A DNA stretch of 64,000 nt from an uncultured Clostridia bacterium (GTDB lineage: Bacteria; Bacillota; Clostridia; Peptostreptococcales; Anaerovoracaceae), in contig CALXBQ010000046.1 of assembly GCA_944386595.1 (NCBI GenBank), positions 12,998-76,997 of the forward strand, in the 5' to 3' direction. This document shows, piece after piece, positions 7,962 to 28,348 of the stretch (positions within the stretch are counted from its first letter, which is position 1; every line of letters starts with the position of its first letter). The translations under genes and the position numbers were made by a program. The notes under the pieces were generated by a model. That model did not search any database and was not told the DNA's origin. It saw only the letters and a program-made list of their open reading frames with translations.

Positions 7962-7962
7962 A

Positions 7963-9061: not shown

Positions 9062-9097
9062 TTCATTTCGTCCTCCTCAATTACATTATACGCATTT

Positions 9098-9139
9098 TTG
9101 TCATATTGTAAATATATTTTTATATTAACAATATGACAA
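9098..9139. promoter_or_regulatory. operator: perfect 12-bp inverted repeat overlapping the XRE promoter
   Basis: TTGTCATATTGT (9098-9109), an 18-nt spacer, then ACAATATGACAA (9128-9139). On the minus strand TTTACA-16-TATAAT follows or overlaps the right arm, and GAGGAGG precedes the XRE start. Confidence 0.6.
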
Positions 9140-9246
9140 GGCCGGTAGTGCACACCTCTATCCGGGTGAGGCAAATCGCCTTATAAAAATAAATAATTCC
9201 TATCATTGAATCCCGTATTTCATCAATGTGAAAATTTCTTAGGATA

Positions 9247-10368: not shown

Positions 10369-10648
10369 ATCTCTTATCTCACAATGGCAATTTACGTTTC
10401 AGGAAATCACTTTTCCAGTAGTTGGAAAAATTGCATGCCAGATATCAAAAACGTTTTATTTCCCCTTCTCTCCCACCTAAAATATTTCGCTCTCACTTTA
10501 GTGCCATGCGTCAAGGCATGTGTCAATGTGTTGTCCAGACCATCACTGTATCCATTGCGCAAATCAAGCTCGATTAAAGTTCTCAAATACAAGTGGAACG
10601 CTCAGAGCAGAATAATATCGCGTTAAAGGGGTGCCTTTATGCCATATT

Positions 10649-11911: not shown

Positions 11912-12004
11912 TGATTCCGCTCTTGGAATATCACCAAGCGAAATTAAATGAGATGTTCGATCAATTAAAATGTGTGTCCATTCCTCCGGATATAAATATT
12001 CTGC

Positions 12005-12499
12005 CTAATTATTTAGAATCTCATCTAATGTTTTATATGCGCCAACTATATCTAGCATTGCACTTTGGTATTCGCTTTTTACCCTCAGATATCCTATTTT
12101 TTCATTTTTAAACTTACAATAACATGGAGGTTTCTCAATAAAATCCCTATGTGCAAGCACCTGTCCTTTCTGATACCATGCTATTTGACATTTAAATAAA
12201 GCTAATGGATTCTTAGCTATGTAGAAGATCTCTAGTGCCCATAAGATCAAAAAAACTGTAATACCTGCGCTAATTTCCAGTGAAATATGGATTTTAGTAA
12301 CAATATAAAGAAAAAAACATAAGCTGGTTATCCAAAACACAATTTTAAAATAGTTTCTTCTGTGCAAAATCTTTGACCATATATTGGAACCATATGACAC
12401 TATTCCATATCTCAAAACAAAAAACAATAGCATAAAAGGGACCAATACATATATTGTCATGCCGAAGCCTTTTGCTATTTCTAAGAAAAAATCACTCAT
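12005..12499 (-). CDS. hypothetical membrane protein (164 aa, ~4 TM), in frame with the downstream TPR-like ORF
   Basis: MTIYVLVPFMLLFFVL, IVFWITSLCFFLYIV and GITVFLILWALEIFYI helices. Ends at TAG 12007..12005. GGAGGG lies upstream of ATG 12499 and TGGTATAAT further upstream. Confidence 0.6.
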   Translation of the reverse strand: MSDFFLEIAKGFGMTIYVLVPFMLLFFVLRYGIVSYGSNIWSKILHRRNYFKIVFWITSLCFFLYIVTKIHISLEISAGITVFLILWALEIFYIAKNPLALFKCQIAWYQKGQVLAHRDFIEKPPCYCKFKNEKIGYLRVKSEYQSAMLDIVGAYKTLDEILNN

Positions 12500-12758: not shown

Positions 12759-14675
12759 TTACGCGATTTTCTGAACTGTTGCGTTGGAAACTGCGTTCTC
12801 TCCGCCGATTACAACCAGGCCTACATAGTTAGGACTAGCTTTAACTGCATCGATAGTGTCCTGAGCTGCATCGATATTGTTCTGGTTTACGAGAACCAGA
12901 GGTGCATGATTCTGAGCTGCGAGAACTCCACCAGTAAGAGCGTCGGCATAATCCATTCCAGTAGCTACAAATGCATACTTAGCCGTACTCATATTTAATG
13001 CTGAATCGTAGCTATTGTTATATTTTGCCATTACCATCTGATTGGTTTCATATCTGTCGGCTCCGCCTGTACGAGTTACCGTAGCATCATACAGATCAGT
13101 CTCAGAAAGCTCATCTTTGATATCGTCACTTACAGCATTTCTTCCACCGATAATGTCATAAGTTCTATGACCGCCTCTAGTTAATCCGTGCAGATAGCTT
13201 CTCTGCTCCCTAGTCAGCTCAGTTCCAACAAGAAGAACAGGTTTTCCAGTAGCTGCTGCAGAGAGTGCATCTGGGTAATTAGTTCCAGATGCTACTAAGA
13301 TATTGTCGAGATTTGTCGGGTCAGCTCCAACCACTCCTAAAGCATCATATTCCTGCATAACCTTGATATTGGTGTCATATCTAGTCTCTCCGGCGATTCT
13401 CTCTACGTCAACATTGTACTGTCCGAGACTGTCTTCGAACTCTGCAGATACTGCGTTAGTTCCACCTACAATATAAACAGTGGTTCCTGCATAGCTTGCA
13501 GTGTTCTGATCAATGTATGCTTTTACTTCATCCTCGTAATCGCTATTTACAAGAAGTATCGGTGCATTCATAGCATTAGCCAATGCCGTTACAGAAAGTG
13601 CATCTGCATAGTTGGTTCCGGTAGCTACGAAAATCTTAGTGAAGTTACCAGCGTTGTCCATCTGGTCAGCTACGAGCATAGCTGTTTCGTATCTGTTAGC
13701 TCCTGCCAGTCTGTCATAGATGGCAAGTGGGTTCATATCGCCTCCCCAAGTGTAGGTTCTGAAGATTCCAGAAGTCTGATTGCCTTTTACTTCTAAGGTA
13801 ATATAGCAGCCTTCATAAGTATTATCCAGAAGATTGATATATCTTCCGTCCCAACCAATATAGCCACTACCAGTGTCGATAACCGTAACGTTCCCGTTCT
13901 TGTCAGTTGCCTTCCAAGTAAGATCTGCATAATCAAGCATTTCATCTATGGACACTTCTGTGCCATCGTCAAACGTGATGCTCTCAACTCTGTAAGCTTC
14001 ACCTTTAACTACCTGATCCACAACCTGTTCTCTATCATACTTGTCAAGTTCAACACTCCAATCAGCCGGATCAGCCTTAACAATCTTCACATCAGTAACC
14101 TTAGTAGGTACAGCGTTCTGATAAACAACGGTGTGATAGTCAGTGTTGGTAGCGCTTGCCCAAGGTCTAACTTCTACAGATACAACTGTTACAGGCTCTA
14201 CAGAACCAAGATCCCATCTGAGATAGTCTTCAACTCCTGCACTGGTGCCCTTCTCGTCAACATTCAGGAATACAAATCCGTTGGCAGTATCAACATTCCA
14301 AGAGAAAGTTGTTATGCTCTTTTCAATCGGATTGCCATCATGGTTTGCATTTCCATACTTCCAAACACCATCATTATCAAAGTTTGCGACATAATGGTAT
14401 AAATCACCATTTGTGCCCCTGAGTGTAAGGTCGATTTCCCAGATTCCACTAGTTCTGAGCATATCAACATTAACATCATAGGACTTGTCGGCGCTTATAG
14501 ATTCATTATAGGTGTTCTCAATGCCACCTTTGAGATCATTCGCATCGTCTAGTACAACCGCATTAGCAGTAGGCATATCTACCTTATCAGACGGCTCCCA
14601 GACAGCGAATACAGGTACAGCGCTGGTAACAACCATAGCGGCTGTAACTGCAAAAGCCACAAGTTTCTTTTTCAT
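12759..14675 (-). CDS. secreted cell-wall/S-layer-type protein, variable N-terminus + 3x CWB2 (paralog 2)
   Basis: Signal peptide MKKKLVAFAVTAAMVVTSAVPVFA. Three repeats of RLAGANRYETA...ATGTNYADALS...APILLVN. C-terminus is ...GGENAVSNATVQKIA. Confidence 0.9.
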   Translation of the reverse strand: MKKKLVAFAVTAAMVVTSAVPVFAVWEPSDKVDMPTANAVVLDDANDLKGGIENTYNESISADKSYDVNVDMLRTSGIWEIDLTLRGTNGDLYHYVANFDNDGVWKYGNANHDGNPIEKSITTFSWNVDTANGFVFLNVDEKGTSAGVEDYLRWDLGSVEPVTVVSVEVRPWASATNTDYHTVVYQNAVPTKVTDVKIVKADPADWSVELDKYDREQVVDQVVKGEAYRVESITFDDGTEVSIDEMLDYADLTWKATDKNGNVTVIDTGSGYIGWDGRYINLLDNTYEGCYITLEVKGNQTSGIFRTYTWGGDMNPLAIYDRLAGANRYETAMLVADQMDNAGNFTKIFVATGTNYADALSVTALANAMNAPILLVNSDYEDEVKAYIDQNTASYAGTTVYIVGGTNAVSAEFEDSLGQYNVDVERIAGETRYDTNIKVMQEYDALGVVGADPTNLDNILVASGTNYPDALSAAATGKPVLLVGTELTREQRSYLHGLTRGGHRTYDIIGGRNAVSDDIKDELSETDLYDATVTRTGGADRYETNQMVMAKYNNSYDSALNMSTAKYAFVATGMDYADALTGGVLAAQNHAPLVLVNQNNIDAAQDTIDAVKASPNYVGLVVIGGENAVSNATVQKIA

Positions 14676-14751
14676 TACATCCTCCTTCTCACTTTTTTCA
14701 AAAGTGAACGTGTTTTAGTTTGATAATACAGCAACATAAATTATCGTGATA

Positions 14752-14781
14752 AGAGTACCACAGGCTTCTAAATTTTGTCAA
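14752..14781 (-). promoter_or_regulatory. candidate promoter of paralog 2 (TTGACA-18-TGGTACTCT)
   Basis: Minus strand reads TTGACA (14781-14776), an 18-nt spacer, then TACTCT (14757-14752) preceded by TGG. The leader box AGCAACATAAAT lies at 14730-14741. There is no homopolymer. Confidence 0.4.
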
Positions 14782-15022
14782 GACACAAAAAACCTTGTGA
14801 AATCGCGGGAAATCATCGGAGTTAAATACATAATTGACAAAGACTGTAATTTTTTATCCGTCAAAGTACACCTACAAAATCTAAAGTCTACAATTATATG
14901 TCCGGCATTTTTTGATTTGTAGTTTCAGATTCTCTGTCGGAATGTTTGTTCAGAAAAATATACAAGAAATTTTTTCAAAAAAACAATTAAAGACTCGTCG
15001 GGTTCTCGGGACGTCTTTTCGC

Positions 15023-15061
15023 AAAAACAAAAACAGAACCCCGGTGCGAACCGAGGTTCTG
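15023..15061 (-). terminator. rho-independent terminator ending the paralog 3 transcript
   Basis: Minus strand reads CAGAACCUCGG-UUCGCA-CCGGGGUUCUG followed by UUUUUGUUUUUG. Confidence 0.75.
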
Positions 15062-15234
15062 CAAGAAACACCAACGCGATTTTTCTATGTTGCTGCATTA
15101 TCAAAATCTGACGGAGGTGTTTTCAGCTATTTTTTTCCGAATAAATGTCCGGAATACATATCGAGTCGCGACCACCTAGGTCGCGACTCAATATCCTTGA
15201 AAATCGTTTTTATTAGTCTATTTATGTTGCTATG
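15023..15234 (-). other. conserved structured 3' UTR module of paralog 3
   Basis: In mRNA order: an 8-bp stem GAAAAUCG/CGAUUUUC (15199-15247) encloses the stop codon and box UAGCAACAUAAAU (15220-15232). Next is a 16-bp GC hairpin (15158-15194). Then an inverted pseudo-leader with CACCUCC and UGCAGCAACAUA (15085-15120). The terminator is last. Confidence 0.55.
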
Positions 15235-17205
15235 TTATGCGATTTTCTGAACTGTTGCGTTGGAAACTGCGTTCTCTCCGCCGATTACTACCATACCTGC
15301 GTAGTCAGTATTGTCTGCAACTCTGTCTACAGTATCACTTGCAGGATCTGTTACGTTAGCATTTACAAGAGCCAGAGGTGCACCGTTCTGAGCTGCGAGA
15401 ACTCCTCCAGTTAACGCATCTGGATAATCCATACCGGATGCTACGAATACATACTTAGCGCTGTCTATTGTCGGTACGAACTTATCCATAACCATCATGT
15501 TAGTCTCGTATCTGTTAACGCCACCGACACGAGTTACGCTATTAGCACTGTATGCCTTTTCGAGAAGCTCATCCTTGATGTCATCGCTTACTGCAACTCT
15601 TCCGCCTACAATAACATAATCCACATCACTGTAAGTGCTGATCACATCATGTAAGTAAGTTCTCTGAGCCTTAGTAAGTTCATCACCCACAAGAAGAACT
15701 GGCTTGCCAGTAGCTGCTGCAGAAAGGGCATCTGGATAATCCATTCCGGATGCTACAAGGATCTCTCCCATGCTACCGTTCACCGTACCGATTCCACCCT
15801 TAGTCTCATCATTGTCAAATGCCTTGAGTACTTCGATATTAGTATCGTATCTGGTGTCACCGGCAATTCTCTCTACATCAACTACAAATTTCTTCAGTTC
15901 TTTTTCGAATGATGCAGATACAGCACTAGTTCCGCCTACAATATAAACCTCAGCGTTGTAGCTGGACAGATTAGCCTTGATGTAAGCAGCAACTTCATCT
16001 TCATGAGCTGCATTCACAAGAAGGATAGGTGCATCTACTTTGTTAGCGAGAGCTGTTACAGAAAGTGCATCAGCATAGTTAGTTCCGGTTGCTACGAAGA
16101 TTTTATCAAATCCGGTTCCGTCATTCATCTGGTCAGCAACTTTCATAGCGGTATCATATCTGTCATCACCAGCAATTCTCTGCTGGATTGCGAGAGATTC
16201 AGCATCCTCTCCCCATGTGGTTTCACCAAAGATACCGGAAGTCTTGTTACCGGTAACAGTTAAAGTTACATATGCGCCTTCGTACTTATCCGAAACGTAG
16301 AATTCAGTACCACCATAGCTCTTATCGTTAAGCTTATTTCCGGCAGCATCATACATATTCATTGCTGTTCCGTCTCTCTTGGTAACCTCCCAGCTAAGAT
16401 TTACATATTCTTCAACTGCGTTCTTGTCACCAGTTACATTCTTAACCTCAACCGGATTTCCATTATCATCAACAGTCCATCCGTTGATTACAGTTCCGTC
16501 ATTGAAAGTTATGCTTTTTACAACATACCAATCTTTAATTACCGGCTGATCTACAACCTGAAAATCTCCATATCTGTCAAGTATAGGGGTACCGGTTTTG
16601 TCAGCAAGAACAACTTCCACGCTAGCTACCTCGTCAGGAATCTGATTCTGGTAAACTACCGCAGTACCACTTACATCATTTCCGCCCCATCCTTCGAAAA
16701 CTACTGATTCTACATATTCAACTTCAGGATCAAGCTCTATAACGTAAGTTCTCTCTGTTCCATAAATGCCCTGATCATCGACGATCATTTCTACAAACTT
16801 CGTATCATGGGAAGTGTCAAATCTCCATGTCAAAGTGGTGATTCCACTTACACCGCATAAATCTTCGTTCGCTTCATGGCCTTTGATAAATACATGAGAG
16901 CCCGAATCACGATTTATTCCGAGAATCTGCTGGTATTCCTTGCCGTTGTTTCCTGTCATGTTCAGAACATACTGGTAGCTACCACCCGTTCTGTTCATGT
17001 CAACGGTTATACTATACTCAGCGTCATCAGTGATTTTGGTATGGTTGTAATTTTCAACAATACCGCCCTCCAGATGGGTACTGGTGAGTACGACCTCGTT
17101 ACTTTCAGGCACGCTGTCACCAGTAGCAGTCCAAGCAAGTGCAGGTACAGCGCTGGTGATCACCATAGCGGCTGTAACTGCAAAAGCCACAAGTTTCTTT
17201 TTCAT
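15235..17205 (-). CDS. secreted cell-wall/S-layer-type protein, variable N-terminus + 3x CWB2 (paralog 3)
   Basis: Signal peptide MKKKLVAFAVTAAMVITSAVPALA. Three repeats of RIAGDDRYDTA...ATGTNYADALS...APILLVN. C-terminus is GGENAVSNATVQKIA. Confidence 0.9.
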   Translation of the reverse strand: MKKKLVAFAVTAAMVITSAVPALAWTATGDSVPESNEVVLTSTHLEGGIVENYNHTKITDDAEYSITVDMNRTGGSYQYVLNMTGNNGKEYQQILGINRDSGSHVFIKGHEANEDLCGVSGITTLTWRFDTSHDTKFVEMIVDDQGIYGTERTYVIELDPEVEYVESVVFEGWGGNDVSGTAVVYQNQIPDEVASVEVVLADKTGTPILDRYGDFQVVDQPVIKDWYVVKSITFNDGTVINGWTVDDNGNPVEVKNVTGDKNAVEEYVNLSWEVTKRDGTAMNMYDAAGNKLNDKSYGGTEFYVSDKYEGAYVTLTVTGNKTSGIFGETTWGEDAESLAIQQRIAGDDRYDTAMKVADQMNDGTGFDKIFVATGTNYADALSVTALANKVDAPILLVNAAHEDEVAAYIKANLSSYNAEVYIVGGTSAVSASFEKELKKFVVDVERIAGDTRYDTNIEVLKAFDNDETKGGIGTVNGSMGEILVASGMDYPDALSAAATGKPVLLVGDELTKAQRTYLHDVISTYSDVDYVIVGGRVAVSDDIKDELLEKAYSANSVTRVGGVNRYETNMMVMDKFVPTIDSAKYVFVASGMDYPDALTGGVLAAQNGAPLALVNANVTDPASDTVDRVADNTDYAGMVVIGGENAVSNATVQKIA

Positions 17206-17277
17206 TACATCCTCCTTCTCACTTTGTTAAAGTGATGTTTGCTTTGATTAAGTTTTAGCAACATAAATTTCACAGTA

Positions 17278-17308
17278 AGTATACCCCCCCCCGGTAAATA
17301 TTTGTCAA
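17278..17308 (-). promoter_or_regulatory. sigma-A promoter of paralog 3 with a G9 tract in the spacer
   Basis: Minus strand reads TTGACA (17308-17303), AATATTTACC, G9 (C-run 17284-17292), TATACT (17283-17278). The spacer is 19 nt. An A-rich UP-like stretch lies upstream. Confidence 0.7.
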
Positions 17309-17707
17309 CACCTAATTTTTGCCCCTATGGGGGATAATACGGATGGTTTTGACAAAAAGCTCATCGTAATGACTATGCCTCTATTCCTTGATAATTTAAG
17401 GCTATAGCCTGTTTTAGTGTTCCTGCAAAGTCGTGAGAACCGGTTTTCTGCGCAGATAATTTCGCAAAAAAACTTTTTTATTCATTGCTGTTTTTGGCCA
17501 TTTTCCCTCTTCCGTAGACTCGTGTAAGTTAAATTCATTAAACCTCGCTCAGAGGGGCAAATTTCGCTTCCATTTTTTTACAAATCGTTGAAATTTCAAC
17601 GATTTTCGCGATTTTTCGCGGACTTTCTCAAAGTGGCCCCGGCTTCGTAAAAATCCACTTTTTTCCGTATCTCAAAAAACCACCATTTCCAACGTTTTTG
17701 AGCACAC

Positions 17708-17732
17708 AAAAAGAACCGCATCATTGCGGTCC
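17708..17732 (-). terminator. rho-independent terminator ending the paralog 4 transcript
   Basis: Minus strand reads GGACCGCA-AUGA-UGCGGUUC followed by UUUUUGUG. Confidence 0.75.
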
Positions 17733-17900
17733 TTAATTGAAAATCACCCGGCGATTCATTATGTTGCTGCACTATCAAACCGCCGGAGGTGTTTCCCACT
17801 TATTTTGTTATAATCCCGGATACAATATCGAGCCGTGACCTTACGGTCACGACTCAATATCCCTGAAAATCGTTTTTATTAGTCTATTTATGTTGCTATG
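17708..17900 (-). other. conserved structured 3' UTR module of paralog 4
   Basis: Same order as in paralog 3: post-stop box at 17886-17898, GC hairpin at 17825-17860, pseudo-leader / anti-SD at 17759-17795, then the terminator. Confidence 0.55.
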
Positions 17901-19832
17901 TTATGCGATTTTCTGAACTAATTCGTTGGATACTGCATTTTCTCCACCGAATACTACCATTCCGTATGCTGGATCTACAGCCTTAACGATTCTCTTAGCA
18001 GCCTTGTAGTTGCTGTCATTTACGAGTACCAGAGGTGCTCCTTCCTTAGCAGCGAGTACTCCACCAGCAAGTGCATCTGCATAATCGTTTCCGGTTGCTA
18101 CAAATACATAAGCTGCATCCTTGTAGTTAGGAACAAGCTTTTCAACGATGTTTCTGTTGGTTGCATATCTGTCAGCTCCACCGATACGTTCTACCTTCTT
18201 AGCATCAGCGATGTAGCTTCTTCCAGCAAGCTCGTTAAGGATGTTGCCGTTAACTGCAGTTGTTCCACCGAGAACCTTGATGTTCTTTACTGCGTAGTTT
18301 ACACCATCAGTGAGGTCTTCTCTTAAGAATTCTCTCTGATCCTTAGTCAGTCTATCACCAACAAGAAGTACAGGATATCCAGTTGCGGATGCAGAGAGTG
18401 CATCTGCATAATTGGTACCGGTAGCTACAAGGAGTGTTCTCATTCCATCATGATATCCGGTTCCAAGATTATTTGTCACCTCATCGTATGCCTTAAGCAC
18501 TTCAAGGTTAGTATCATATCTGTTGTCGCCTGCAAGTCTTTCAACATCTACGTCGAGCTTATAGAGCTTATCGGTAAATGCCTTGGATACAGCTTCATAT
18601 CCACCGATTACATAAACGTTAACATTGTAGCTAGCAGCATTGTCCATGATGTAATCTGCAACTGTATCTTCAGTTCCTGCGTTTACAAGAAGTATAGGCG
18701 CACCAATCGCCTTAGCAAAAGCTGTAGCGGACAGAGCATCTGCATACTGGTTAGCATTTCCTGTAGCAACAACATAGTTGGTGAATCCCTTTGCAAGCTT
18801 CATCTCATCAGCGATTGCCATAGCAGTTTCAAATCTGTCAGCACCTGCGATTCTGTCCATAATAGCGAGTGCGGAAGCATCATCACCCCATGTACCGTCG
18901 GTAAATATTCCGGAAGCCTTTTTTGCAACTGCCTTCAATGTAACATACTTACCCTTATAGCCATCTTTCACGGTAAATACATTAGATGCACTTTCTCCAT
19001 GATTAGTACCATCTGAATTAGTGATTACCCACTTGTAGTCAGCATATTTTGAAATCTCACCACCGTTCCACTTATAGGAACCATCTTTGTCAAGATTGTA
19101 GTTGGAAATTACAGTCTCATCATCAAAGGTAATGCTGTAAATAGCGTAAGTTTCTCCTATTACTGGCTGATCAGCAAACTGAAGCTTACCATATTTATCC
19201 AACTCAGGAACTCCAGCTTCAGTTGACTTAATTACCTGAACATCTACAATCTTGCTAGGAAGCTGCTCATCATAAACGATAGCCTGATGTCCATCCTTTA
19301 CATCTCCGTCCCAACCTTCGAACACTACGTTTTCAACGGATTCTACTTCCTTATCGAGTTTGATAGTGAACACCTCGTCAACGCCCTTTGTTCCCTGGTT
19401 GTCCACTTCTAAGTAGAGATATTTCTGATTAGGATCTCCGGCAATGTCAAACTTCCAGGTAAGAGTAGTAATCGCTGCAGGAACGGCAACATTCTTTCCC
19501 GAATCAACTACGCTCAAACCTTTTGCACCGAGACTGGTATCAATTGCCAATACCTCATCATACTTCTGTCCCTGGTTACCTACCATGTTGATAGCATACC
19601 TGAAGGTACCCTTTGTTCTCAAGAAGTCAACATTAACGGTGTAGGTATCACCGTCACTAATTGTGGTTCCGGTCTGGGAAATACCGCCCTTGAGATGAGT
19701 GTTGTCGATGAGCACCTCATTTGTCTCAGGCATGGTCTGGGTATTGTCCGGACCCCAAACAGCGAATGCAGGTACAGCGCTTGTTACAATCATAGCGGCT
19801 GTAACTGCAAAAGCCACAAGTTTCTTTTTCAT
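17901..19832 (-). CDS. secreted cell-wall/S-layer-type protein, variable N-terminus + 3x CWB2 (paralog 4)
   Basis: Signal peptide MKKKLVAFAVTAAMIVTSAVPAFA. Three repeats of RIAGADRFETA...ATGNANQYADALS...APILLVN. C-terminus is GGENAVSNELVQKIA. Confidence 0.9.
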   Translation of the reverse strand: MKKKLVAFAVTAAMIVTSAVPAFAVWGPDNTQTMPETNEVLIDNTHLKGGISQTGTTISDGDTYTVNVDFLRTKGTFRYAINMVGNQGQKYDEVLAIDTSLGAKGLSVVDSGKNVAVPAAITTLTWKFDIAGDPNQKYLYLEVDNQGTKGVDEVFTIKLDKEVESVENVVFEGWDGDVKDGHQAIVYDEQLPSKIVDVQVIKSTEAGVPELDKYGKLQFADQPVIGETYAIYSITFDDETVISNYNLDKDGSYKWNGGEISKYADYKWVITNSDGTNHGESASNVFTVKDGYKGKYVTLKAVAKKASGIFTDGTWGDDASALAIMDRIAGADRFETAMAIADEMKLAKGFTNYVVATGNANQYADALSATAFAKAIGAPILLVNAGTEDTVADYIMDNAASYNVNVYVIGGYEAVSKAFTDKLYKLDVDVERLAGDNRYDTNLEVLKAYDEVTNNLGTGYHDGMRTLLVATGTNYADALSASATGYPVLLVGDRLTKDQREFLREDLTDGVNYAVKNIKVLGGTTAVNGNILNELAGRSYIADAKKVERIGGADRYATNRNIVEKLVPNYKDAAYVFVATGNDYADALAGGVLAAKEGAPLVLVNDSNYKAAKRIVKAVDPAYGMVVFGGENAVSNELVQKIA

Positions 19833-19902
19833 TACATCCTCCTTCTCACTTTATAAAAGTGATGTTTGCTTGATTAAGTTTAGCAACATAAATTTCACAG
19901 TA

Positions 19903-19933
19903 AGTATACCCCCCCCCGGTAAATATTTGTCAA
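19903..19933 (-). promoter_or_regulatory. sigma-A promoter of paralog 4 with a G9 tract in the spacer
   Basis: TTGACA (19933-19928), 19-nt spacer with C-run 19909-19917, TATACT (19908-19903). Confidence 0.7.
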
Positions 19934-20754
19934 CACCTAATTTTTTCGCCTTCGGCGGAGGTTTATGAGAATTTTGACTGAAATTTCATCGGATCCGATA
20001 TGGCTTCAGACGTTGAAAATCACGGGATACAGCCGGTTTTGCGCGGAACGGTATGCACGTTTTGTGAGAGAAATGGCAGCGAAAATCCTCTAAAAACTTT
20101 TTTCTTGTCTCACCGATTTTCCGCATCTTCCGTGTAACTCTTCGCATCTTCAGAAAAACCCCGCTCAGAGGCGAAATTTAGGCTTCCAATTTCTTACAGA
20201 CCCTTGAAATTCCAACGATTTTCGCCATTTTTCGCCGCATTTTCTCTTTTGTCTCTAAAAGCCGAAACATCGCCGCCCGCAGCCGTTGAAATTCCAACGT
20301 TTGCGACGCTCAGAATTTCACTTTAAAATACCTGGCGCATAGGCTATATTAAAGCTGGATGGTTTGGCTTTCGTTAGGTTAACCGCTCTTCACCTGTCCT
20401 CTTGGTCCTGCCATTATGCCACGGCTTCAGCGCTGTGGTTTTTTGCAATTTACTGTTTTTACCATATGGCAGCAATGGGCGTGCACACTTCTACCTTATT
20501 CCGCCTGGCACTGCGCTTTGGTCTAACGAAATTCTAACAAAAACGCTGCAATACGCTGTTTGGTAGAACTTTTCAGGCTTAACAAAGCTCATTCCGGATA
20601 AATTCTTCTACCAAATCTTGTGACCTCTGTTGAAAAATCTAATATCGTTAGATTGAAATCCCGAAACCACCGCAAAAAGTAGAACCCTCGTCAGCGCAGC
20701 AGCCCGAATACCTATAGCCAAAGCGCGCTTCTCCCATCCGGCCTTTGATCCCAC

Positions 20755-20785
20755 GAAAAAAGACCGCAGGTTTCCCCGCGGCCCT
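20755..20785 (-). terminator. rho-independent terminator ending the paralog 5 transcript
   Basis: Minus strand reads GGCCGCGG-GGAAA-CCUGCGGUC followed by UUUUUUCG. Confidence 0.7.
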
Positions 20786-20983
20786 AGAAATCACCTGGCG
20801 ATTTATCTATGTTGCTGCACTATCAAATCACCGGAGGTGTTTCTTGTTATTAAATTTCGCCGCGCAAAACCCGCAGCCTCGTTAATCTCAATAATTCCTG
20901 AGACAATATCGAGCCGCGACCTTCCTGGCCGCGACTCAATATACTGAAAATCGTGTTTACTTTAGTCTATTTATGTTGCTATG
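20755..20983 (-). other. conserved structured 3' UTR module of paralog 5
   Basis: Post-stop box at 20969-20981, GC hairpin at 20906-20942, pseudo-leader / anti-SD at 20807-20845, then the terminator. Confidence 0.55.
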
Positions 20984-22933
20984 TTATGCGATTTTCTGAA
21001 CTAATTCGTTGGATACTGCATTTTCTCCACCGATTACTACAAGTCCTGCATAGTTGGAATTAGATCCTGTGTTAACCATCTCAATGATGTCCTTAGCAGG
21101 GTCGATTTCGCTGTTGTTTACCAGTACGAGCGGTGCACCATTGTGTGCAGCCAGTGCTCCACCGGTAAGTGCGTCTGCATAATCGTTTCCAGTTGCAACG
21201 AATACATACTTAGCAGAACCCTTATTTTCAACGAACTTTTCCATAACCATCATGTTGGTTTCAAATCTGTCAGCTCCGCCTATTCTGGTTACGCTCTTTG
21301 CTTTGTAAGCTTTAGAGGAAAGTTCATCTTTTACATCATCGCTTACAGCATTTCTTCCGCCAATGATTGTGTAGTTTCTCTGATCTGCTGCTTCGCTATT
21401 AATCTCATAGATATAATTTCTCTGCTCCTTTGTAAGCGCATCTCCTACCAGAAGAACCGGCTTGCCAGTAGCAGCTGCAGAAAGTGCATCTGGGAAATTA
21501 TTACCGGAAGCTACGAGAATATCAAACATATCTCCGTCTGCTCCTATACCTTCTGGTGCCTTGTTATCAAATGCCTTCAGAACCGCAATGTTAGTTGCAT
21601 ATCTGTCAGCACCTGCAATTCTGTCTACATCTACTGCGAACTTCTTAAGCGCTGTTTCAAAGTCTGCGGATACAGCCTTTTCTCCACCAACGATATACAC
21701 GTTAGCATTGTAATTTGCTGCGTTATCCTTAATGTACTGTGCTACTTTTTCTTCATAATCGCCATTTACCAGAAGAACCGGTGCGCCTACTTTATCAGCA
21801 AGTGCGGTTACAGAAAGTGCATCTGCGTAGTTAGCTCCTGTAGCTACGAAAATGTTGGTAAATCCGTCTGCTGGCTTCATCTGATCAGCAACCTTTATAG
21901 CGGTTTCATATCTGTCAGCGCCAGCGATTCTCTGCTGAATAGCAATGGATTCTGCATCTTCACCCCATGTTGCCTCGCCGAAAATACCAGAAGTCTTGTT
22001 GCCGGAAACAGTAGCCGTTACATATGCACCCTTGTAATTGTCGTTGTTAACTTCGAAGTGAACATTCTTAGAAAGATTTTCTAACTTAACTTCTGTACCG
22101 TCTCTCTTAGTAACTGCCCAGTTATAGTTAACATACTCTCCTACATCACCAGTGTAACCCGTTACCTTTCCGTCTTTGATGACAAAGTTACTAATTTCAG
22201 TTCCATCATTAAAGGTGATGCTGTTAACCACATACTTTCCACCGAAAACCGGCTGGTCTACTACCTGAACTCTGCCATATTTATCAAGGTCAGGAATCCA
22301 TCCGGTCATTTCGTTCACTCCATTTACATACTCAGCCTTAACTACTTCTACGTCAGTTACATATTCAGGAACCTGATCCTGGTAAATGGTAGTAGTATCG
22401 CTAGCAGCACCAGCTTTGTAACCATCTCTGTTAACAACCGATACGGATACTACTTCTTCTGCTTCTGTTGGGAGATCCCACTCAAGGTAAGTATCTACAG
22501 CCGTTGTAGTATTCAGTGAGTCAACATTAAGAAAAATCTTCTTGGCTTTTTCGCTTACTTCCCAAGAGAAAGTAGTGATTCCCGTATTGATAGTCTTGTG
22601 TGATCCAGGTACACCGCCCTTCCAAACCTGATCATTATCAAATACAGCCTTTGTTGTGATAATCTTATCCTTATTGGTTCTCAGGTCAAGACTTAAAACA
22701 TAGTTACCACTGGTCTTTAACAGGTCAACGGTAACACCGTAGGTAGCACCTTCTGTTATAGAGGCTTCAATCTCGTTAGTGATTCCGCCTTTAAGGGTAT
22801 CCTTATCGAGAACAACTGCATTGGCTTCAGGCCAATCAGCCTGTCCTGCAGGACCCCACTCAGCAAATACAGGTACAGCGCTGGTTACTACCATAGCGGC
22901 TGTAACTGCAAAAGCCACAAGTTTCTTTTTCAT
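20984..22933 (-). CDS. secreted cell-wall/S-layer-type protein, variable N-terminus + 3x CWB2 (paralog 5)
   Basis: Signal peptide MKKKLVAFAVTAAMVVTSAVPVFA. Three repeats of RIAGADRYETA...ATGANYADALS...APVLLVN. C-terminus is GGENAVSNELVQKIA. Confidence 0.9.
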   Translation of the reverse strand: MKKKLVAFAVTAAMVVTSAVPVFAEWGPAGQADWPEANAVVLDKDTLKGGITNEIEASITEGATYGVTVDLLKTSGNYVLSLDLRTNKDKIITTKAVFDNDQVWKGGVPGSHKTINTGITTFSWEVSEKAKKIFLNVDSLNTTTAVDTYLEWDLPTEAEEVVSVSVVNRDGYKAGAASDTTTIYQDQVPEYVTDVEVVKAEYVNGVNEMTGWIPDLDKYGRVQVVDQPVFGGKYVVNSITFNDGTEISNFVIKDGKVTGYTGDVGEYVNYNWAVTKRDGTEVKLENLSKNVHFEVNNDNYKGAYVTATVSGNKTSGIFGEATWGEDAESIAIQQRIAGADRYETAIKVADQMKPADGFTNIFVATGANYADALSVTALADKVGAPVLLVNGDYEEKVAQYIKDNAANYNANVYIVGGEKAVSADFETALKKFAVDVDRIAGADRYATNIAVLKAFDNKAPEGIGADGDMFDILVASGNNFPDALSAAATGKPVLLVGDALTKEQRNYIYEINSEAADQRNYTIIGGRNAVSDDVKDELSSKAYKAKSVTRIGGADRFETNMMVMEKFVENKGSAKYVFVATGNDYADALTGGALAAHNGAPLVLVNNSEIDPAKDIIEMVNTGSNSNYAGLVVIGGENAVSNELVQKIA

Positions 22934-23004
22934 TACATCCTCCTTCTCACTTTTGCAAGTGATGTTTGCTTTGATTAAGTTTTAGCAACATAAATTTCAC
23001 AGTA

Positions 23005-23034
23005 AGTATACCCCCCCCGGTAAATATTTGTCAA
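23005..23034 (-). promoter_or_regulatory. sigma-A promoter of paralog 5 with a G8 tract in the spacer (the only 18-nt spacer)
   Basis: TTGACA (23034-23029), 18-nt spacer with C-run 23011-23018 (8 C), TATACT (23010-23005). Confidence 0.7.
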
Positions 23035-23269
23035 CACCTATTTTTTGAACCCGTGAGAAATCTTTCAGCGAATTTTGACTCAAACGCCGACGGAACCGGT
23101 GTGGGGGTATAAGCCAAAATAGGAGGATTACAGGGGGTTTTGCCCAAATAGGCAGGTGAGGATTTTGAAGCAAAGAATGTTTGTTATTAGAAAAACATTT
23201 CTGCAACGTCGATCAACTTTTTTCGGCTTTACGGTTGAAAGTCGCGAAAGGTTAGATTATAATAAAGCC

Positions 23270-23358
23270 AAGAGGAAGCGGGTAGCCGACTTTCTGATAG
23301 AGTTTTAATTAAAATCAAAACCGTCTCAGGTGGTCAGACCTGGGGCGGTTTACTTTTT
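23270..23358 (+). ncRNA. candidate antitoxin sRNA (~90 nt), convergent with and 3'-overlapping the small toxin ORF
   Basis: Near-consensus promoter: TTGAAA (23235-23240), 17 nt, TATAAT (23258-23263). The transcript would start near 23270. It would end at hairpin AAAACCGUCUCAGGU-GGUCAG-ACCUGGGGCGGUUU followed by ACUUUUU. Confidence 0.45.
23317..23358. terminator. bidirectional terminator shared by the toxin mRNA and the sRNA
   Basis: A 12-bp stem flanked by AAAAUCAAAA on one side and UUUACUUUUU on the other. It pairs fully (with two G-U) in the plus transcript and has two C-A mismatches in the minus transcript. Confidence 0.55.
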
Positions 23359-23427
23359 ACGGTGGTTATCCCATCTGATTAACCCCATAATCATCAAGAC
23401 GATTACGAGGATTTCATAATCAGACAT
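23350..23427 (-). CDS. type I toxin-like 25-aa hydrophobic peptide
   Basis: GGAAAGGAGCC then ATG. Product is MSDYEILVIVLMIMGLIRWDNHRKK, one TM helix plus a basic tail. An extended -10 TGGTATAAT (core at 23482-23477) lies upstream. The stop codon abuts the shared hairpin. Below the 60-aa cutoff of the ORF track. Confidence 0.5.
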   Translation of the reverse strand: MSDYEILVIVLMIMGLIRWDNHRKK

Positions 23428-23633
23428 AAGGCTCCTTTCCGAAAGTCGACCGCCTCCCGTCCTCTTGGCAAGTTTGATTATACCACAGTCGTCACACCAT
23501 TTCTGTAGCATACCCCTCATATACAAAAACAGAATTTCCAGACATAATTTCAGAAAATGAATTGTAGGGGAAACCGGGACAATTCAACATCGCAGGTTTT
23601 CACTGATTAATTATGCGTCACAATCACGACACG

Positions 23634-23662
23634 AAAAACCGCAGACATTTGCGCCTGCGGTT
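23634..23662 (-). terminator. rho-independent terminator ending the paralog 6 transcript
   Basis: Minus strand reads AACCGCAG-GCGCAAAUGU-CUGCGGUU followed by UUUCGUG. Confidence 0.75.
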
Positions 23663-23969
23663 TCGTTCGAAAATCCCTTGTGGCTTTTGCTTTATGTTGC
23701 TGCATAAACTTAATCACTGGGAGATTTTCCTTGTTTTGTTTTCGTGGGGTATCCCCCCGAAAGGACAAAGTGTGCCGCCCGGATCTTCGGCATCCGGGTT
23801 ATGAGCCCGACGCGCTTACCAGCACCGGCCTGTCGCTTGCCTCAAGCGTTCTGTAATCTTCCTCCTGTCTTTTCGGTGAGACACTTTTTATATAATATCG
23901 AGCCGCGGGCATTAACTCCGCGACTCGATATCTTTTGAAAATCGTGTTTACTTTAGTCTATTTATGTTG
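23634..23969 (-). other. conserved structured 3' UTR module of paralog 6 (longer variant)
   Basis: Post-stop box at 23960-23972 overlaps the TAG stop. GC hairpin at 23895-23931. Pseudo-leader at 23691-23735, where TTTATGTTGCTGCATAAACTTAATCA mirrors the 5' leader TTTATGTTGCTAAAACTTAATCA. Confidence 0.55.
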
Positions 23970-25820
23970 CTACTGTCCTACTACGATTTCCTGAACCAAT
24001 TCGTTGGAAACTGCAGCCGTTCCACCGAATACGAAGATTCTGCCCTCACTAGCAACACCTTCACTTGCGATAATGTAGTTAGCAGTTTCAACGTTGTTAT
24101 TGTTTACCAATGCCAGAGGGTAAGGACCATAAGCTGCGGCATTTGCTGCGGCAACGAGACCGTCTGCAAAATCATCGCCCGTCGCTACGTATACAGCAGG
24201 TGTAGAATTCCACTTATCAGAGAATGCCTGATATACTCTCTCATTAGTTGTATATCTGTTATCTCCTGCCACTCTTACAACATCAGTCAGTACATTTGCT
24301 ACATATTCTCCACTCTGCAGTTCACCGAACAAATCAGCACTTACAGCATTGGTGCCACCAATTACGTAGTACTTGTCATTCTGTCCGAGAGAGCCTAAGA
24401 ACTTTCTCTGTGCACTGTTAAGGCTGTCACCTACCAGAAGCACTGGTTCTCCGGTTGCAGCTGCTGAAAGAACATCTGCATACGAGGTTCCAGATGCAAC
24501 GAGTATTTCAGCTGAAGAATCTATTTCCAGCTCATCGAGTACTGCAAGATTTGTTACATATCTATCTGCACCCGCAAGTCTCTCTACATCAGCGTATCTA
24601 TAAAGAGCATCTTCAAAACCCTGAGAAACGACGCTGGTTCCACCGATGATGTAAATCTTGGTTCCATTATAAGTTGCATTTGCATTTATAAAGTCTACGA
24701 CTGCCTCTTCATAATCGTCATTTACCAGAAGTACTGGATATTTTTTCTCAGCTGCAAGTGCAACTGCAGAAAGTGCATCAGGATAATCCGCACCGCTTGC
24801 AATTACAACTCCACCGAACTTCTGTCCTGACTGCAATGTTGCTTTCGCAAGATTCATCGCAGTTTCATATCTGTTAGCACCTGCATAACGTGTAAATCTT
24901 GCAAGAGCCTCAGAGTCAGCACCCCAAACTACTTCATCGAATACTCCAGTTCCTGCCTTACCGGATACCACTGCAGTAATCTTATGTCCCTGATCGTCAG
25001 CGGTTGGAGTGTACTTAACGTCTGTACCAACAACAGTAACACCATCTCTCAGCCAGGCGATATCAGTGTATGTTTTAATATCATCGGCTGTCGTAAGCTT
25101 GGTATCAGCTGTCAGTGTAACTTCGCTTATAGTGAGTTCCTGTCCGAGAACGGCCTGAGTAGCCTCAACATATTCAGGAACAGTATAACTTGCTCCCTGT
25201 CTTGCGGCCTCTATAGGGTCGTATTCTTCATTCTTAACGATAACCTTGAGGCTTTCTACGTTTTCCGGATGCTCATAATACATAGTCATTGCGACATCTC
25301 CGCCTGCATTGAAGTGAGAAATCCAGTCAGCTCCTTCAGCAAGTCCAAGCTTCTTTGTGGTTACTTTTGGGGTCTGAAGCCCAAGTTCAATAACCGATAC
25401 ATCCACTCCGTATTCAGATACATCGTACACAAGTTCAATCATTCCCTTGGTGTTAGAAACTATCTGTTCACCATTCACAGTGATATTAGATCCTGTGCTC
25501 CAACCACGAACAACGGTTGAAATCTGATCCTTCTGAGTACCATTTTCCTTGTCGGCAAAGAATAAATCGTACTGATAATAGTGTCCCTCTCCAGGACCCT
25601 TGTTTAAATCAATCACCTGACTGAAGTGAGCACCATCAGCAGCAGGGCCAGCTACAGCATAAGTTGCCCTATTCTCACCTGCATTTAAGGTGATCACATT
25701 TGGATTCGGATTAGTCGTCGGAGTAGTCGGCTTATCCGTCCAGTCTACAGCAAATACAGGTACAGCGCTGGTGATTATCATAGCTGCCGTAACTGCAAAA
25801 GCTACAAGTTTCTTTTTCAT
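23970..25820 (-). CDS. secreted cell-wall/S-layer-type protein, variable N-terminus + 3x CWB2 (paralog 6)
   Basis: Signal peptide MKKKLVAFAVTAAMIITSAVPVFA. Three repeats of RYAGANRYETA...ASGADYPDALS...YPVLLVN. The N-terminal type resembles paralog 1 (MYYEHPENVESL vs MYVDYPENIKSV). Confidence 0.9.
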   Translation of the reverse strand: MKKKLVAFAVTAAMIITSAVPVFAVDWTDKPTTPTTNPNPNVITLNAGENRATYAVAGPAADGAHFSQVIDLNKGPGEGHYYQYDLFFADKENGTQKDQISTVVRGWSTGSNITVNGEQIVSNTKGMIELVYDVSEYGVDVSVIELGLQTPKVTTKKLGLAEGADWISHFNAGGDVAMTMYYEHPENVESLKVIVKNEEYDPIEAARQGASYTVPEYVEATQAVLGQELTISEVTLTADTKLTTADDIKTYTDIAWLRDGVTVVGTDVKYTPTADDQGHKITAVVSGKAGTGVFDEVVWGADSEALARFTRYAGANRYETAMNLAKATLQSGQKFGGVVIASGADYPDALSAVALAAEKKYPVLLVNDDYEEAVVDFINANATYNGTKIYIIGGTSVVSQGFEDALYRYADVERLAGADRYVTNLAVLDELEIDSSAEILVASGTSYADVLSAAATGEPVLLVGDSLNSAQRKFLGSLGQNDKYYVIGGTNAVSADLFGELQSGEYVANVLTDVVRVAGDNRYTTNERVYQAFSDKWNSTPAVYVATGDDFADGLVAAANAAAYGPYPLALVNNNNVETANYIIASEGVASEGRIFVFGGTAAVSNELVQEIVVGQ

Positions 25821-25888
25821 TACATCCTCCTTCTCACTTTGTTAAAGTGATGTTTGCTTATTAGTTTAGCAACATAAATTTCACAGTA

Positions 25889-25919
25889 AGTATACCCCCC
25901 CCCGGTAAATATTTGTCAA
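25889..25919 (-). promoter_or_regulatory. sigma-A promoter of paralog 6 with a G9 tract in the spacer
   Basis: TTGACA (25919-25914), 19-nt spacer with C-run 25895-25903, TATACT (25894-25889). Confidence 0.7.
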
Positions 25920-26032
25920 CACCTATTTTTTTGAACCTGTGAGAAATCTTTCAGCGGATTTTAATCTAAACGCCGGCGGAACCGGTGTGGGGGCATTGCC
26001 GGAAGTCTGTGGATAAGCGCAAAAGGCAACAC

Positions 26033-26069
26033 TAAAACAGCCTGCGAAGGATTTCTCCCTCGCAGGCTC
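26033..26069 (-). terminator. rho-independent terminator ending the paralog 7 transcript
   Basis: Minus strand reads GAGCCUGCGAGGG-AGAAAU-CCUUCGCAGGCU followed by GUUUUAG. Confidence 0.65.
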
Positions 26070-26301
26070 AGTAATGAAAATCACATGTGGCTTTGAAATT
26101 TATGTTGCTGTAATATGCGATTTTCGGATGTGTTTTGTGAAGCGGCGCTCCACTTGAAACCTGCGGCTTTTGTCCGATATGCACGCGGCAAGTTTCAAAA
26201 GAAGCACTTGCGTTTATATGATACCGAGCCGCTGACCTTTCGGCCGCGGCCCGGTATTTCTTTAGAAAATCGTTTTCTATTCGTTTATGATTATGTTGCT
26301 A
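26033..26301 (-). other. conserved structured 3' UTR module of paralog 7 (diverged)
   Basis: Post-stop box variant TTATGTTGCTA at 26291-26301. Hairpin at 26221-26257. Second box AATTTATGTTGCTGTAA at 26098-26114, followed by TATGCGATTTTCGGA, which looks like a decayed copy of a gene 3' end. Confidence 0.45.
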
Positions 26302-28242
26302 TTATGCGATTTTCTGAACTACTTCGTTGGATACAGCGTTCTCTCCACCGATTACGATGAAGCGGTCGAATGCTGCTTCTCCGATATCAGTCTTGATGTT
26401 GCTTACGATATTCTTAGCCACCTTAGTGTTAGATTCGCTTACGAGTACGAGCGGTGCTCCATACTGTGAATTGGTTGCTGCAAGTACGCCACCGGTAAGA
26501 GCATCTGCATATCCGTTTCCGGACGCAACATATACAACATTTGCTGATCCTGCGCTGTACTTACCGCCAACCTTGAAGAAAGTCTCCACAATCTTCTTGT
26601 TGGTAGCATATCTGTCGGTTCCGCCGAGACGGGTTACCTGAGTTGTATCAGTTATGTAATCCTTAGACTTCAGCGCCTTCTCAACGCTCTTCGATACAGC
26701 GCTGGTTCCTCCTGCAATGTATATTGCATCTACTGTGTCAGCATCTTCAAGAGCCTTAAGATAAGTGTCCTGAACCGGCTTAATGCTGTCTCCTACGAGA
26801 AGCACAGGTCTTGCTGTTGCAGCTGCAGTCAGTGCGTCTGCGTAATTATTTCCAGTTGCTACAAAGAGCTGGCTCATTGCACCATCAGTTGCACCAAGTC
26901 CGGTGCCGGCAGTTTCGTTGCCTGCGTAAGCCTTGAGTATTGCAACGTTAGTCTGATATCTGTTAGCGCCTTCAAGTCTTGTTACATTCTTATACTTGTA
27001 AAGGCTGTCTTCAAAGCTCTGAGATACTGCACTTGTTCCACCAAGAACTACAATCTGAGTATTGCTGAAGCTTTTTGCATTTTCATCGATATATGCTTTT
27101 ACTGCAGCTTCGTGGCTTCCATCTACCAGAAGTATAGGAGCCTCAAGTTTGCTGGCAAGAGCAGTTGCAGAAAGTGCGTCTGCATAATCAGTTCCGGTAG
27201 CTACGATTACGTACTCAAGTTTGCCATTCTTAGCAATCATCTTGTCTGCAACCTTCATTGCAGTTTCATATCTGTCGTCACCGGCGATTCTGTCTTTAGT
27301 TGCAAGAGCCTCTGCATCAGCACCCCAGGTTACAGTATCAAAGATGCCGGATACTTTGTTACCCTTTACAGTAACGGTAACGAGAGCTCCCTCGAACTTC
27401 TTGACATCACTTATCATGAGACCATTACCGTCGTAAATCAAATCACAATCTGATGCGCCAATCGGGCTAATCTGATTCACACCATTCTTCATGGCTTTCC
27501 ATTCTACTGTTACATACTTTGCGAGATCGTCATAGCCGATAACTGTTCCATCATCTAACGTTACGCTGTTTACTCTGTATGCCTTGCCTGCTACCGGCTG
27601 GGTTGCAACCACAGGCTTGCCATCAGTACCAGTAACTACTGCAAAATTATTAGCAGGATCACACTCAACAACCTCTACAGACTGTACATCTACAGGAGCT
27701 TCGTTCTGATAGATAACGAACTGACCCGTTGTACTTAAAACTACAGATGATACAGTGTCAAACTCGCCAACAAGCTTCGAAGATACTGTTATTTCATCCC
27801 TTTCCGTCTCACCGAGTTCATCCATGACGAGAGTAACCTCTCCTGCTTTGAAAGTCCATTTCAAATTAACAATACCTTTAACTACTTTCTCTGTAGAATA
27901 GTCCTCTCCAATTCTAACACGAGCAGACCTGGATGTGTCAGGCCAAACCCAAGTCTTTACCAATCCAGCTTTGGCATTATCACCCTTACCTAAATGGATG
28001 TCAACTACGCTGTTGCCCGCAATTCTGTTGGTATCAACAATCATCTCGTAAGTAGCACCCTCTTCAGTAATAGCTGCGTTGATGTTTTCAACGATACCCT
28101 GTGACTGAGCCGGTGTCACTATAACCTCATTCTTGGTGAGGTCGATAGATGGCTGACCGCCGATCTCCCAAGCAAGTGCAGGTACAGCGCTGGCAACTAC
28201 CATAGCGGCTGTAACTGCAAAAGCTACAAGTTTCTTTTTCAT
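26302..28242 (-). CDS. secreted cell-wall/S-layer-type protein, variable N-terminus + 3x CWB2 (paralog 7)
   Basis: Signal peptide MKKKLVAFAVTAAMVVASAVPALA. Three repeats of RIAGDDRYETA...ATGTDYADALS...APILLVD. C-terminus is GGENAVSNEVVQKIA. Confidence 0.9.
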   Translation of the reverse strand: MKKKLVAFAVTAAMVVASAVPALAWEIGGQPSIDLTKNEVIVTPAQSQGIVENINAAITEEGATYEMIVDTNRIAGNSVVDIHLGKGDNAKAGLVKTWVWPDTSRSARVRIGEDYSTEKVVKGIVNLKWTFKAGEVTLVMDELGETERDEITVSSKLVGEFDTVSSVVLSTTGQFVIYQNEAPVDVQSVEVVECDPANNFAVVTGTDGKPVVATQPVAGKAYRVNSVTLDDGTVIGYDDLAKYVTVEWKAMKNGVNQISPIGASDCDLIYDGNGLMISDVKKFEGALVTVTVKGNKVSGIFDTVTWGADAEALATKDRIAGDDRYETAMKVADKMIAKNGKLEYVIVATGTDYADALSATALASKLEAPILLVDGSHEAAVKAYIDENAKSFSNTQIVVLGGTSAVSQSFEDSLYKYKNVTRLEGANRYQTNVAILKAYAGNETAGTGLGATDGAMSQLFVATGNNYADALTAAATARPVLLVGDSIKPVQDTYLKALEDADTVDAIYIAGGTSAVSKSVEKALKSKDYITDTTQVTRLGGTDRYATNKKIVETFFKVGGKYSAGSANVVYVASGNGYADALTGGVLAATNSQYGAPLVLVSESNTKVAKNIVSNIKTDIGEAAFDRFIVIGGENAVSNEVVQKIA

Positions 28243-28317
28243 TACATCCTCCTTCTCACTTATCTCTAAGTGAATGTTTGCTTTGATTTAAAATAGCAAC
28301 ATAATTTGTTCTCTGTA

Positions 28318-28348
28318 AGTATACCCCCCCCCGGTAAATATTTGTCAA
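28318..28348 (-). promoter_or_regulatory. sigma-A promoter of paralog 7 with a G9 tract in the spacer
   Basis: TTGACA (28348-28343), 19-nt spacer with C-run 28324-28332, TATACT (28323-28318). Confidence 0.7.

Follow-up and report, generated by a model that had tools for sequence, protein, structure and literature searches.

Homopolymer switches in promoter spacers are textbook knowledge for Neisseria, Bordetella, Treponema and Mycoplasma. For Clostridia, the phase variation on record is, to our knowledge, nearly all due to DNA inversion (cwpV, flagella, cmr). Here we analyse an array of genes for CWB2-domain proteins from an uncultured Clostridia bacterium of the Anaerovoracaceae, in which five paralogs are each preceded by a promoter carrying a run of eight or nine G between its −35 and −10 hexamers. 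The array lies in a stretch of 64,000 nt (contig CALXBQ010000046.1 of assembly GCA_944386595.1, positions 12,998–76,997 of the forward strand), referred to below as the window; window coordinates are positions within this stretch, and all promoters and paralogs are on its minus strand. We regard the poly-G tract as a probable functional slippage switch for each of these predicted surface-protein genes.

The passage on Neisseria meningitidis porA in PMC7864442 describes a poly-G run between −35 and −10 in which a one-base change alters the hexamer spacing and transcription. The array has in common with porA a G homopolymer within the sigma-70-type promoter spacer of a surface-protein gene. It differs from porA, a single gene of a Gram-negative pathogen with about 9–11 G (the longest giving 17 nt), in having five Firmicute paralogs with 8–9 G and spacers of 18/19 nt, known here from sequence. 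In Treponema pallidum, tp0126 has a poly-G tract between −35 and −10, tprE, tprG and tprJ have tracts that are permissive up to 8 G and not when longer, and in tprL 9 G prevails over a minority of 8 G; in T. p. pertenue this last gene is silenced by a natural promoter deletion, and both length heterogeneity within isolates and effects on reporters have been measured (PMC7864442). As in tp0126 and tprE/G/J/L, the paralogous surface-protein genes of the array each have a promoter poly-G of their own, and the tprL deletion has parallels in two related metagenome contigs (L007 and L013, see below). Unlike the array, which is known from assemblies only, the Treponema genes belong to a spirochaete and encode outer-membrane beta-barrels, and the tpr tracts are positioned differently relative to the hexamers.

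The array can be compared with other switched surface-gene families. In Mycoplasma hyorhinis vlp and Bordetella pertussis fim2/fim3, variable surface-protein genes are independently switched by homopolymers in the promoter region, with combinatorial display as the outcome. A surface-gene family with a homopolymer switch per gene is also what we propose here; however, the vlp tract is poly-A, the fim tract is poly-C located between the BvgA site and −10, and the gene families are unrelated. The sap locus of Campylobacter fetus consists of tandem S-layer genes with conserved 5′ ends and variable bodies, and the array looks alike in these respects, whereas in sap one promoter is moved among silent genes by recombination and in the array every paralog has a complete promoter of its own. 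Clostridioides difficile, in the same order (Peptostreptococcales), has an S-layer built by CWB2 proteins. In a passage of PMC9210968, its cwpV gene is described as phase variable and tied to phage resistance. The cwpV product shares with the array proteins the triple CWB2 anchoring module, but cwpV is switched by site-specific inversion between promoter and gene, and no inverted copies were found in the array.

By analogy, the mechanism would match porA and tp0126 and the architecture would match tpr and vlp; for porA, tp0126 and tprE/G/J the design has been established by experiment. Lineage, the CWB2 family and the 18/19-nt range differ. A search of full-text literature returned no precedent for homopolymer or poly-G phase variation of CWB2 or S-layer genes, nor for slipped-strand promoter variation in Clostridia; a single apparent match proved irrelevant. 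The proposed switch is thus mechanistically ordinary, and taxonomically and functionally new.

The five promoters have the layout AAAA(A/T)TAGGTG-TTGACA-AATATTTACC-Gn-TATACT, where n is 9, 9, 8, 9 and 9. An A-rich block lies upstream of the −35, which matches the consensus in all six positions (the −10 in five of six); the tract makes up the final 8–9 nt of the spacer, and the ATG follows 68–75 nt downstream of the −10. In the promoter at 17278–17308, which precedes the paralog at 15235–17205 (656 aa), TTGACA occupies 17303–17308, the 19-nt spacer 17284–17302 with G9 at 17284–17292, and TATACT 17278–17283. The paralogs at 17901–19832 (643 aa) and 23970–25820 (616 aa) likewise have 19-nt spacers, in promoters at 19903–19933 (G9 at 19909–19917) and 25889–25919 (G9 at 25895–25903); so does the first gene of the array, 26302–28242 (646 aa), whose promoter at 28318–28348 (G9 at 28324–28332) adjoins phzF. 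The paralog at 20984–22933 (649 aa) stands behind the G8 promoter 23005–23034 (tract 23011–23018), the sole one of the five whose spacer, 18 nt, falls inside the canonical range of 16–18 nt. Because of that same limit on the spacer, a sigma-70 consensus scan accepts this copy alone (11 of 12 matches).

Runs of at least eight G or C occur in the window only at these five tracts. Overlapping G8 matches numbered nine, compared with a mean of 2.4 in shuffled sequences, and three of 100 shuffles reached nine. The excess over base composition is weakly significant, with the five tracts being paralogous copies and not independent events; the main support for the poly-G tract is comparative evidence, not chance statistics.

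Syntenic arrays in other samples were recovered by exact-protein look-ups and one protein-pattern scan. The related contigs are labelled L001, L005–L008, L010, L011 and L013, and all tract lengths are those of the metagenome assembly consensus. L001 is 99.9% identical to the window; L005 and L006 have ∼96% nucleotide identity to it in phzF/ptb and differ from it in their sets of paralogs; L007 and L008 represent a second species (87% nucleotide identity in phzF). We compared 27 copies of the tract promoter in eight sequences (the window and seven related metagenome contigs). The −35 and −10 hexamers are invariant in all of them, and two copies have a single substitution each in the AT half of the spacer. 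As for the tract, 18 copies have G9 and seven have G8; the remaining two are interrupted, GGGAGGGGGG in one and GGGGGGAGG in the other.

When promoters were grouped by an identical 30-nt upstream flank, four of the five groups were polymorphic for 8 and 9. The phzF-proximal promoter is G9 in the window and in L005 and G8 in L006; the promoter at 17278–17308 is matched by copies with identical flank that are G9 in L001 and L005 and G8 in L006. The share of G8 among pure tracts is 1/5 in the window, 1/6 in L005, 1/2 in L010 and 4/6 in L006. In pairwise comparisons of orthologs the tract length differed in 1/3, 2/3 and 4/6 cases, whereas among 44 A/T runs of 6–7 nt in the same alignments two differed, both representing one site. 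All 25 G/C runs of at least 7 nt in 191.6 kb (the window and related contigs) are this promoter tract. In the second species a pure G9 has been retained (L008) though nearby promoter bases have changed. A homopolymer of about 7 nt or more between recognisable hexamers, and a length that is polymorphic between strains while the flanks are conserved, are traits by which contingency loci of the porA/tp0126 type are recognised, and the array shows both in the assembly consensus; a pure tract that varies in length in fixed surroundings is, as far as these alignments tell, the signature of a maintained and hypermutable tract.

The preliminary description had pointed to invariance of the tract across related strains as an observation that would speak against phase variation; invariance was not found, as promoters with identical flanks differ by 8 versus 9. 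It had also expected that gain or loss of G would retune the spacer, with 17 nt as the optimum. A drift to 17 nt does not appear: pure tracts of G7, like those of G10 or longer, are absent among the 25. The working states appear to be 18 versus 19 nt rather than steps towards 17, and the restriction to two lengths points to selection for a toggle with two states or else to limited sampling.

The assignment of TTGACA and TATACT as the likely hexamers is backed by a conservation boundary, a homologous tract-free promoter, an RNA motif at the predicted transcript start and terminators belonging to the individual genes. Conservation among paralogs starts abruptly ∼12 nt upstream of the −35 and extends through the leader and signal peptide; farther upstream the sequences are unrelated. 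The conserved RNA motif ATTTATGTTGCT starts a few bases past the predicted transcript start. Each paralog gene is followed by a hairpin terminator, and the genes would therefore be independent transcription units.

Two CWB2 paralogs in the window have no tract. The promoter of the paralog at 12759–14675 (14752–14781) has TTGACA, an 18-nt spacer ending in TGG and TACTCT; that of the seventh CWB2 protein, at 5456–7303 (7383–7411), has TTGAAT, a 17-nt spacer ending in TGG and TACTCT. The former is clearly homologous to the tract promoter: its −35 and leader motif are the same, and its −10 is at the position that TATACT has in the G8 copy. Related promoters exist without a tract, which shows that a promoter of this kind can do without one. 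Promoters of the 12759–14675 type read TGG-TACTCT in the window, L005 and L006, TGA-TACTCT in L009 and TGG-TATTCT in L010; in the L009 and L010 variants the change either falls on the free ‘n’ of TGn or makes for a better hexamer. What is conserved is solely the extended −10 reading (TGn-TAYTCT), suggesting that the tract-free promoters depend on the TGn motif. Two other parsings were rejected. A 16-nt spacer followed by GGTACT in the tract-free promoter fails on the L009 and L010 variants; a −10 at 17 nt in the tract promoter (GGTATA or GTATAC) gives poor hexamers without the conserved A2/T6 pattern, and TATACT at 18/19 nt stands. The positions and lengths of the five C-runs in the preliminary description were exact, a recount of the spacers gave the same 19, 19, 18, 19 and 19 nt, and its division of seven paralogs between two promoter types was correct, including the absence of any homopolymer from paralogs 1 and 2, both of which have TGG-TACTCT.

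In the mechanism that we propose, each of the five genes would form a transcription unit of its own, under a near-consensus sigma-A promoter in which a hypermutable poly-G at the end of the spacer abuts the −10. Slipped-strand mispairing in replication would add or remove one G and thereby change the spacer from 18 nt (G8) to 19 nt (G9) or back. With G8 the promoter would have the geometry of the homologous tract-free promoter and would be in the higher-expression state; with G9 the distance between the hexamers would be too long by one base and their phase off by about 34 degrees, a low or off state. A spacer of 17 ± 1 nt is optimal for sigma-70/sigma-A promoters, and one of 19 nt usually performs poorly (PMC7864442). 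Given this optimum and the 17- and 18-nt spacers of the tract-free promoters, G8 is most likely active and G9 weak or off. One may speculate that the poly-G block shortens or under-twists the spacer and so shifts the effective optimum.

With the tracts mutating independently, cells would display different subsets of CWB2-anchored proteins with variable N-termini, in addition to the two paralogs without a tract, which are presumably constitutive. Such bet-hedging would most plausibly serve against surface-recognising phages or host factors. The proposed mechanism takes the promoter anatomy and the position, purity, conservation and between-strain 8/9 polymorphism of the tract as observed, and adds to them a slippage rate, an ON length, an effect size and a selective agent that we infer. 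The G8 counts fit a ‘mostly off, a few on’ pattern and do not fit strict mutual exclusion. More tentatively, and with somewhat less than an even chance of being right in full, the array could be the combinatorial S-layer system of a gut or rumen anaerobe, with 5–7 CWB2 paralogs, each gated by poly-G (18/19 nt) and accompanied by constitutive ones, conserved across species and coupled to a 5′–3′ complementarity of the untranslated regions (UTRs).

Several points weigh against a slippage switch. The comparisons are all between metagenome assemblies and yielded only the lengths 8 and 9; among homopolymer errors, the reading of G9 as G8 is the most common. Mismatch repair by MutS/MutL, which is the rule in Firmicutes, keeps slippage rates down. 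L006, with four of its six tracts being G8, is at odds with a strict rule of ‘one ON at a time’. The presumed OFF length, G9, is the majority and G7 is absent, for which reason the assignment of ON and OFF is only something that we infer. Furthermore, the ∼130-nt cassette is identical among paralogs, and gene conversion could keep the tract in place without any selection for mutability.

The same facts feed an explanation that we regard as unlikely, though deserving of serious attention: that the G tract belongs to the promoter as a fixed structural element copied along with the cassette, that assembly error or neutral variation accounts for the 8/9 differences, and that regulation is ordinary. 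The tract might then be a rigid GC-rich, A-form-like segment setting promoter strength or supercoiling sensitivity, or else a regulator site. The two lengths only, the G9 in 18 of 25 pure tracts, the identical cassette that gene conversion or whole-cassette selection could maintain, and the reliance on assembly consensus are all consistent with it. However, the lengths differ in promoters that are otherwise 100% identical, in several independent samples and with several short-read assemblers (assembler diversity was judged from contig names, which suggest SPAdes, IDBA and others). A/T runs hardly ever differ in those alignments, and the genes are free of frameshifts. A run of 8–9 G is intrinsically unstable, yet it is pure across species and is the sole such run in 192 kb, which gives it the look of a contingency locus; and the tract-free promoters, as noted, do without it.

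A less probable explanation is that DNA inversion or recombination is the real switch, with inverted repeats as recombinase sites, as in cwpV and C. fetus sap, and that the G tract is incidental. Inverted repeats of 12–19 nt are indeed present on either side of promoters and coding regions, with ATTTATGTTGCT in each 5′ UTR and AGCAACATAAAT past each stop codon and again farther downstream; the repeat motif occurs at every unit, and array content differs strongly between strains that are ∼96% identical. One pair, 19 nt long and 95% complementary, is formed by 26091–26109 and the leader of the next gene (25868–25886); its two arms are 204 nt apart and enclose the promoter at 25889–25919. Still, none of the 27 promoter copies in eight sequences is in the opposite orientation, so that the two orientations by which an inverton is recognised were not seen, and the first promoter (28318–28348) has no upstream partner repeat. 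Most partner repeats are just 10–13 nt long and 500–900 nt distant, and there is no recombinase among the neighbouring open reading frames (ORFs) tested. The 5′ and 3′ repeats of a gene change together and the 5′ copy is at the predicted transcript start, which RNA pairing would explain at least equally well.

Good hexamers separated by 19 nt typify the targets of MerR-family activators, whose operators are dyad-symmetric and centred in the spacer. That such an activator untwists the over-long spacers, with the G tract as part of its operator, is very improbable: four of the five window promoters do have 19 nt, but direct inspection of the spacer AATATTTACCGGGGGGGGG revealed no dyad beyond the 8-nt AAATATTT overlapping the −35, the ORFs tested included no MerR-family gene, and G8 copies with 18-nt spacers are found in the same array. 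The original interpretation as slipped-strand phase variation is supported by the strain comparison, the inversion and dyad-operator alternatives having been tested against it.

Several related contigs carry altered copies of the promoter. The interrupted 10-nt tract GGGAGGGGGG (L005 4456–4465) is ahead of a frameshifted gene, and the interrupted tract GGGGGGAGG (L011 831–839) is ahead of an intact one; interrupted tracts would be ‘locked’ promoters. In L007 (10088–10089), by comparison with L008 (9858–9944), 87 nt comprising the whole promoter and the transcript start are deleted with the gene intact. Also in L013 (∼5760–5790) a gene is intact behind a deletion of 23 nt that includes most of the tract and the −10. 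Taken together, the interrupted tract with its frameshifted gene and the two promoter deletions indicate that silencing of single paralogs is tolerated. Individual paralogs can, it seems, be permanently switched off, which is what one expects of surface genes that are dispensable and conditionally useful.

The five tract-driven paralogs (616–656 aa) have an identical signal peptide and N-terminal halves with 37–58% identity between paralogs. Three tandem PF04122 (CWB2) domains follow in each protein, with E-values from 1e-48 to 1e-59; the 656-aa product of 15235–17205 shows the order of signal peptide, variable N-terminal half and three PF04122 domains. The CWB2 half of the product of 20984–22933 matches structures of C. 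difficile Cwp6, Cwp8 and SlpA HMW. A signal peptide, a hypervariable N-terminal half and a triple CWB2 wall anchor are the features of a surface-exposed product, and judging by this architecture the paralogs are probably of S-layer type.

In comparison with L005 and L006, the array (12759–28348) is hypervariable between flanks that are ∼96% identical: both the number and the types of paralogs differ. The ∼130-nt cassette of promoter, leader and signal peptide stays identical despite this turnover, which points to concerted evolution or cassette-mediated recombination. Foreign genes are found within related arrays (L005 3694–4267, L006 6575–6847 and L010 2372–3256), namely a ParE/PhdYeFM toxin–antitoxin pair and a gene with a Bro-N domain; in addition, a fragment of a CWB2 gene at 760–1860 of L010 is oriented the opposite way.

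If the array does work as a combinatorial S-layer system, it would be the first contingency system in Clostridia to act on S-layers through simple sequence repeats, and slippage contingency loci would extend to commensal anaerobic Firmicutes and to the CWB2 family. Phase variation by slippage, usually ascribed to small-genome pathogens, would then shape the surfaces of commensal Firmicutes, probably under phage pressure, and the S-layer paralogs would stand out as targets of phage or host selection. The choice of G8 or G9 at each promoter would be a marker of the expressed surface proteins readable from metagenomic sequence. Assemblers break or mis-join at the identical 130-nt cassettes, and homopolymer calls at these sites are worth keeping and not ‘polishing’ away.

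The predicted mRNA of every paralog begins with ATTTATGTTGCTA, and the reverse complement TAGCAACATAAAT is found directly past its own stop codon. The 5′ UTR motif is at 17258–17270, 19883–19895, 22985–22997, 25869–25881, 28296–28306 and 14731–14742; the 3′ partners after the stop codons are at 17896, 15230, 20979, 23970, 26299 and 12756. A second copy, GCAGCAACATA(A/G), is located on the minus strand 130–170 nt past each stop and ahead of the terminator (17767, 15093, 20815, 23700 and 26108). The 5′ and 3′ UTRs could pair over 12–14 bp with a duplex dG of −16 to −19 kcal/mol, versus about −6 for shuffled sequences. There are three sequence types of the motif, and both sides change together; as the energy of pairing within a gene is only marginally better than that of cross-type pairings, the covariation is suggestive and not decisive. 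The motifs may serve 5′–3′ pairing that protects the 5′ end of the mRNA, or they may be recombination repeats.

We also saw a small hairpin directly upstream of the Shine–Dalgarno sequence in the leaders (e.g. 17225–17245), with compensatory changes CACTTT...AAAGTG, CACCCG...GGGTG and CACCTG...AGGTG; two pairs of leaders have 5–6 double changes in it. An Rfam search of 12–30 kb gave nothing credible (two snoRNA matches with E-values of 0.2–0.7 are noise), which sets the leader apart from the known riboswitches and RNA families. In L006 (15453–15557) a leader contains a tandem duplication of 27–28 nt including ATTTATGTTGCT, by which the distance from −10 to ATG becomes 99 nt versus about 70.

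The promoter 20-mer had zero exact matches in species-representative genomes and no match among viral contigs; a single match in JGI metagenomes (L003) lies inside a permease gene and was dismissed as chance. In exact look-ups of the five paralog proteins, three were without record, and two were on record only on contigs breaking at the repeated cassette. The short-read contigs L002, L004, L012 and L013 end exactly at the promoter–leader–signal-peptide cassette.

The genes flanking the array are ordinary chromosomal ones (phzF-family, ptb, shikimate kinase, scpB, pncB, recJ, feoB and rlmD). The closest named relatives of PncB, with 82–84% amino acid identity, are from Emergencia, ‘Clostridiales Family XIII’ and Anaerovoracaceae metagenome-assembled genomes. 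Between the two tract-free paralogs, at 7434–12499, there are a gene for an M78 peptidase (IrrE-like), a tetratricopeptide repeat (TPR) protein gene and several ORFs without family match, the latter having lower G+C as judged by eye; this region may be a mobile or defence-related insertion. L012 has another arrangement, with helix-turn-helix (HTH), M78 and DUF3368 genes.

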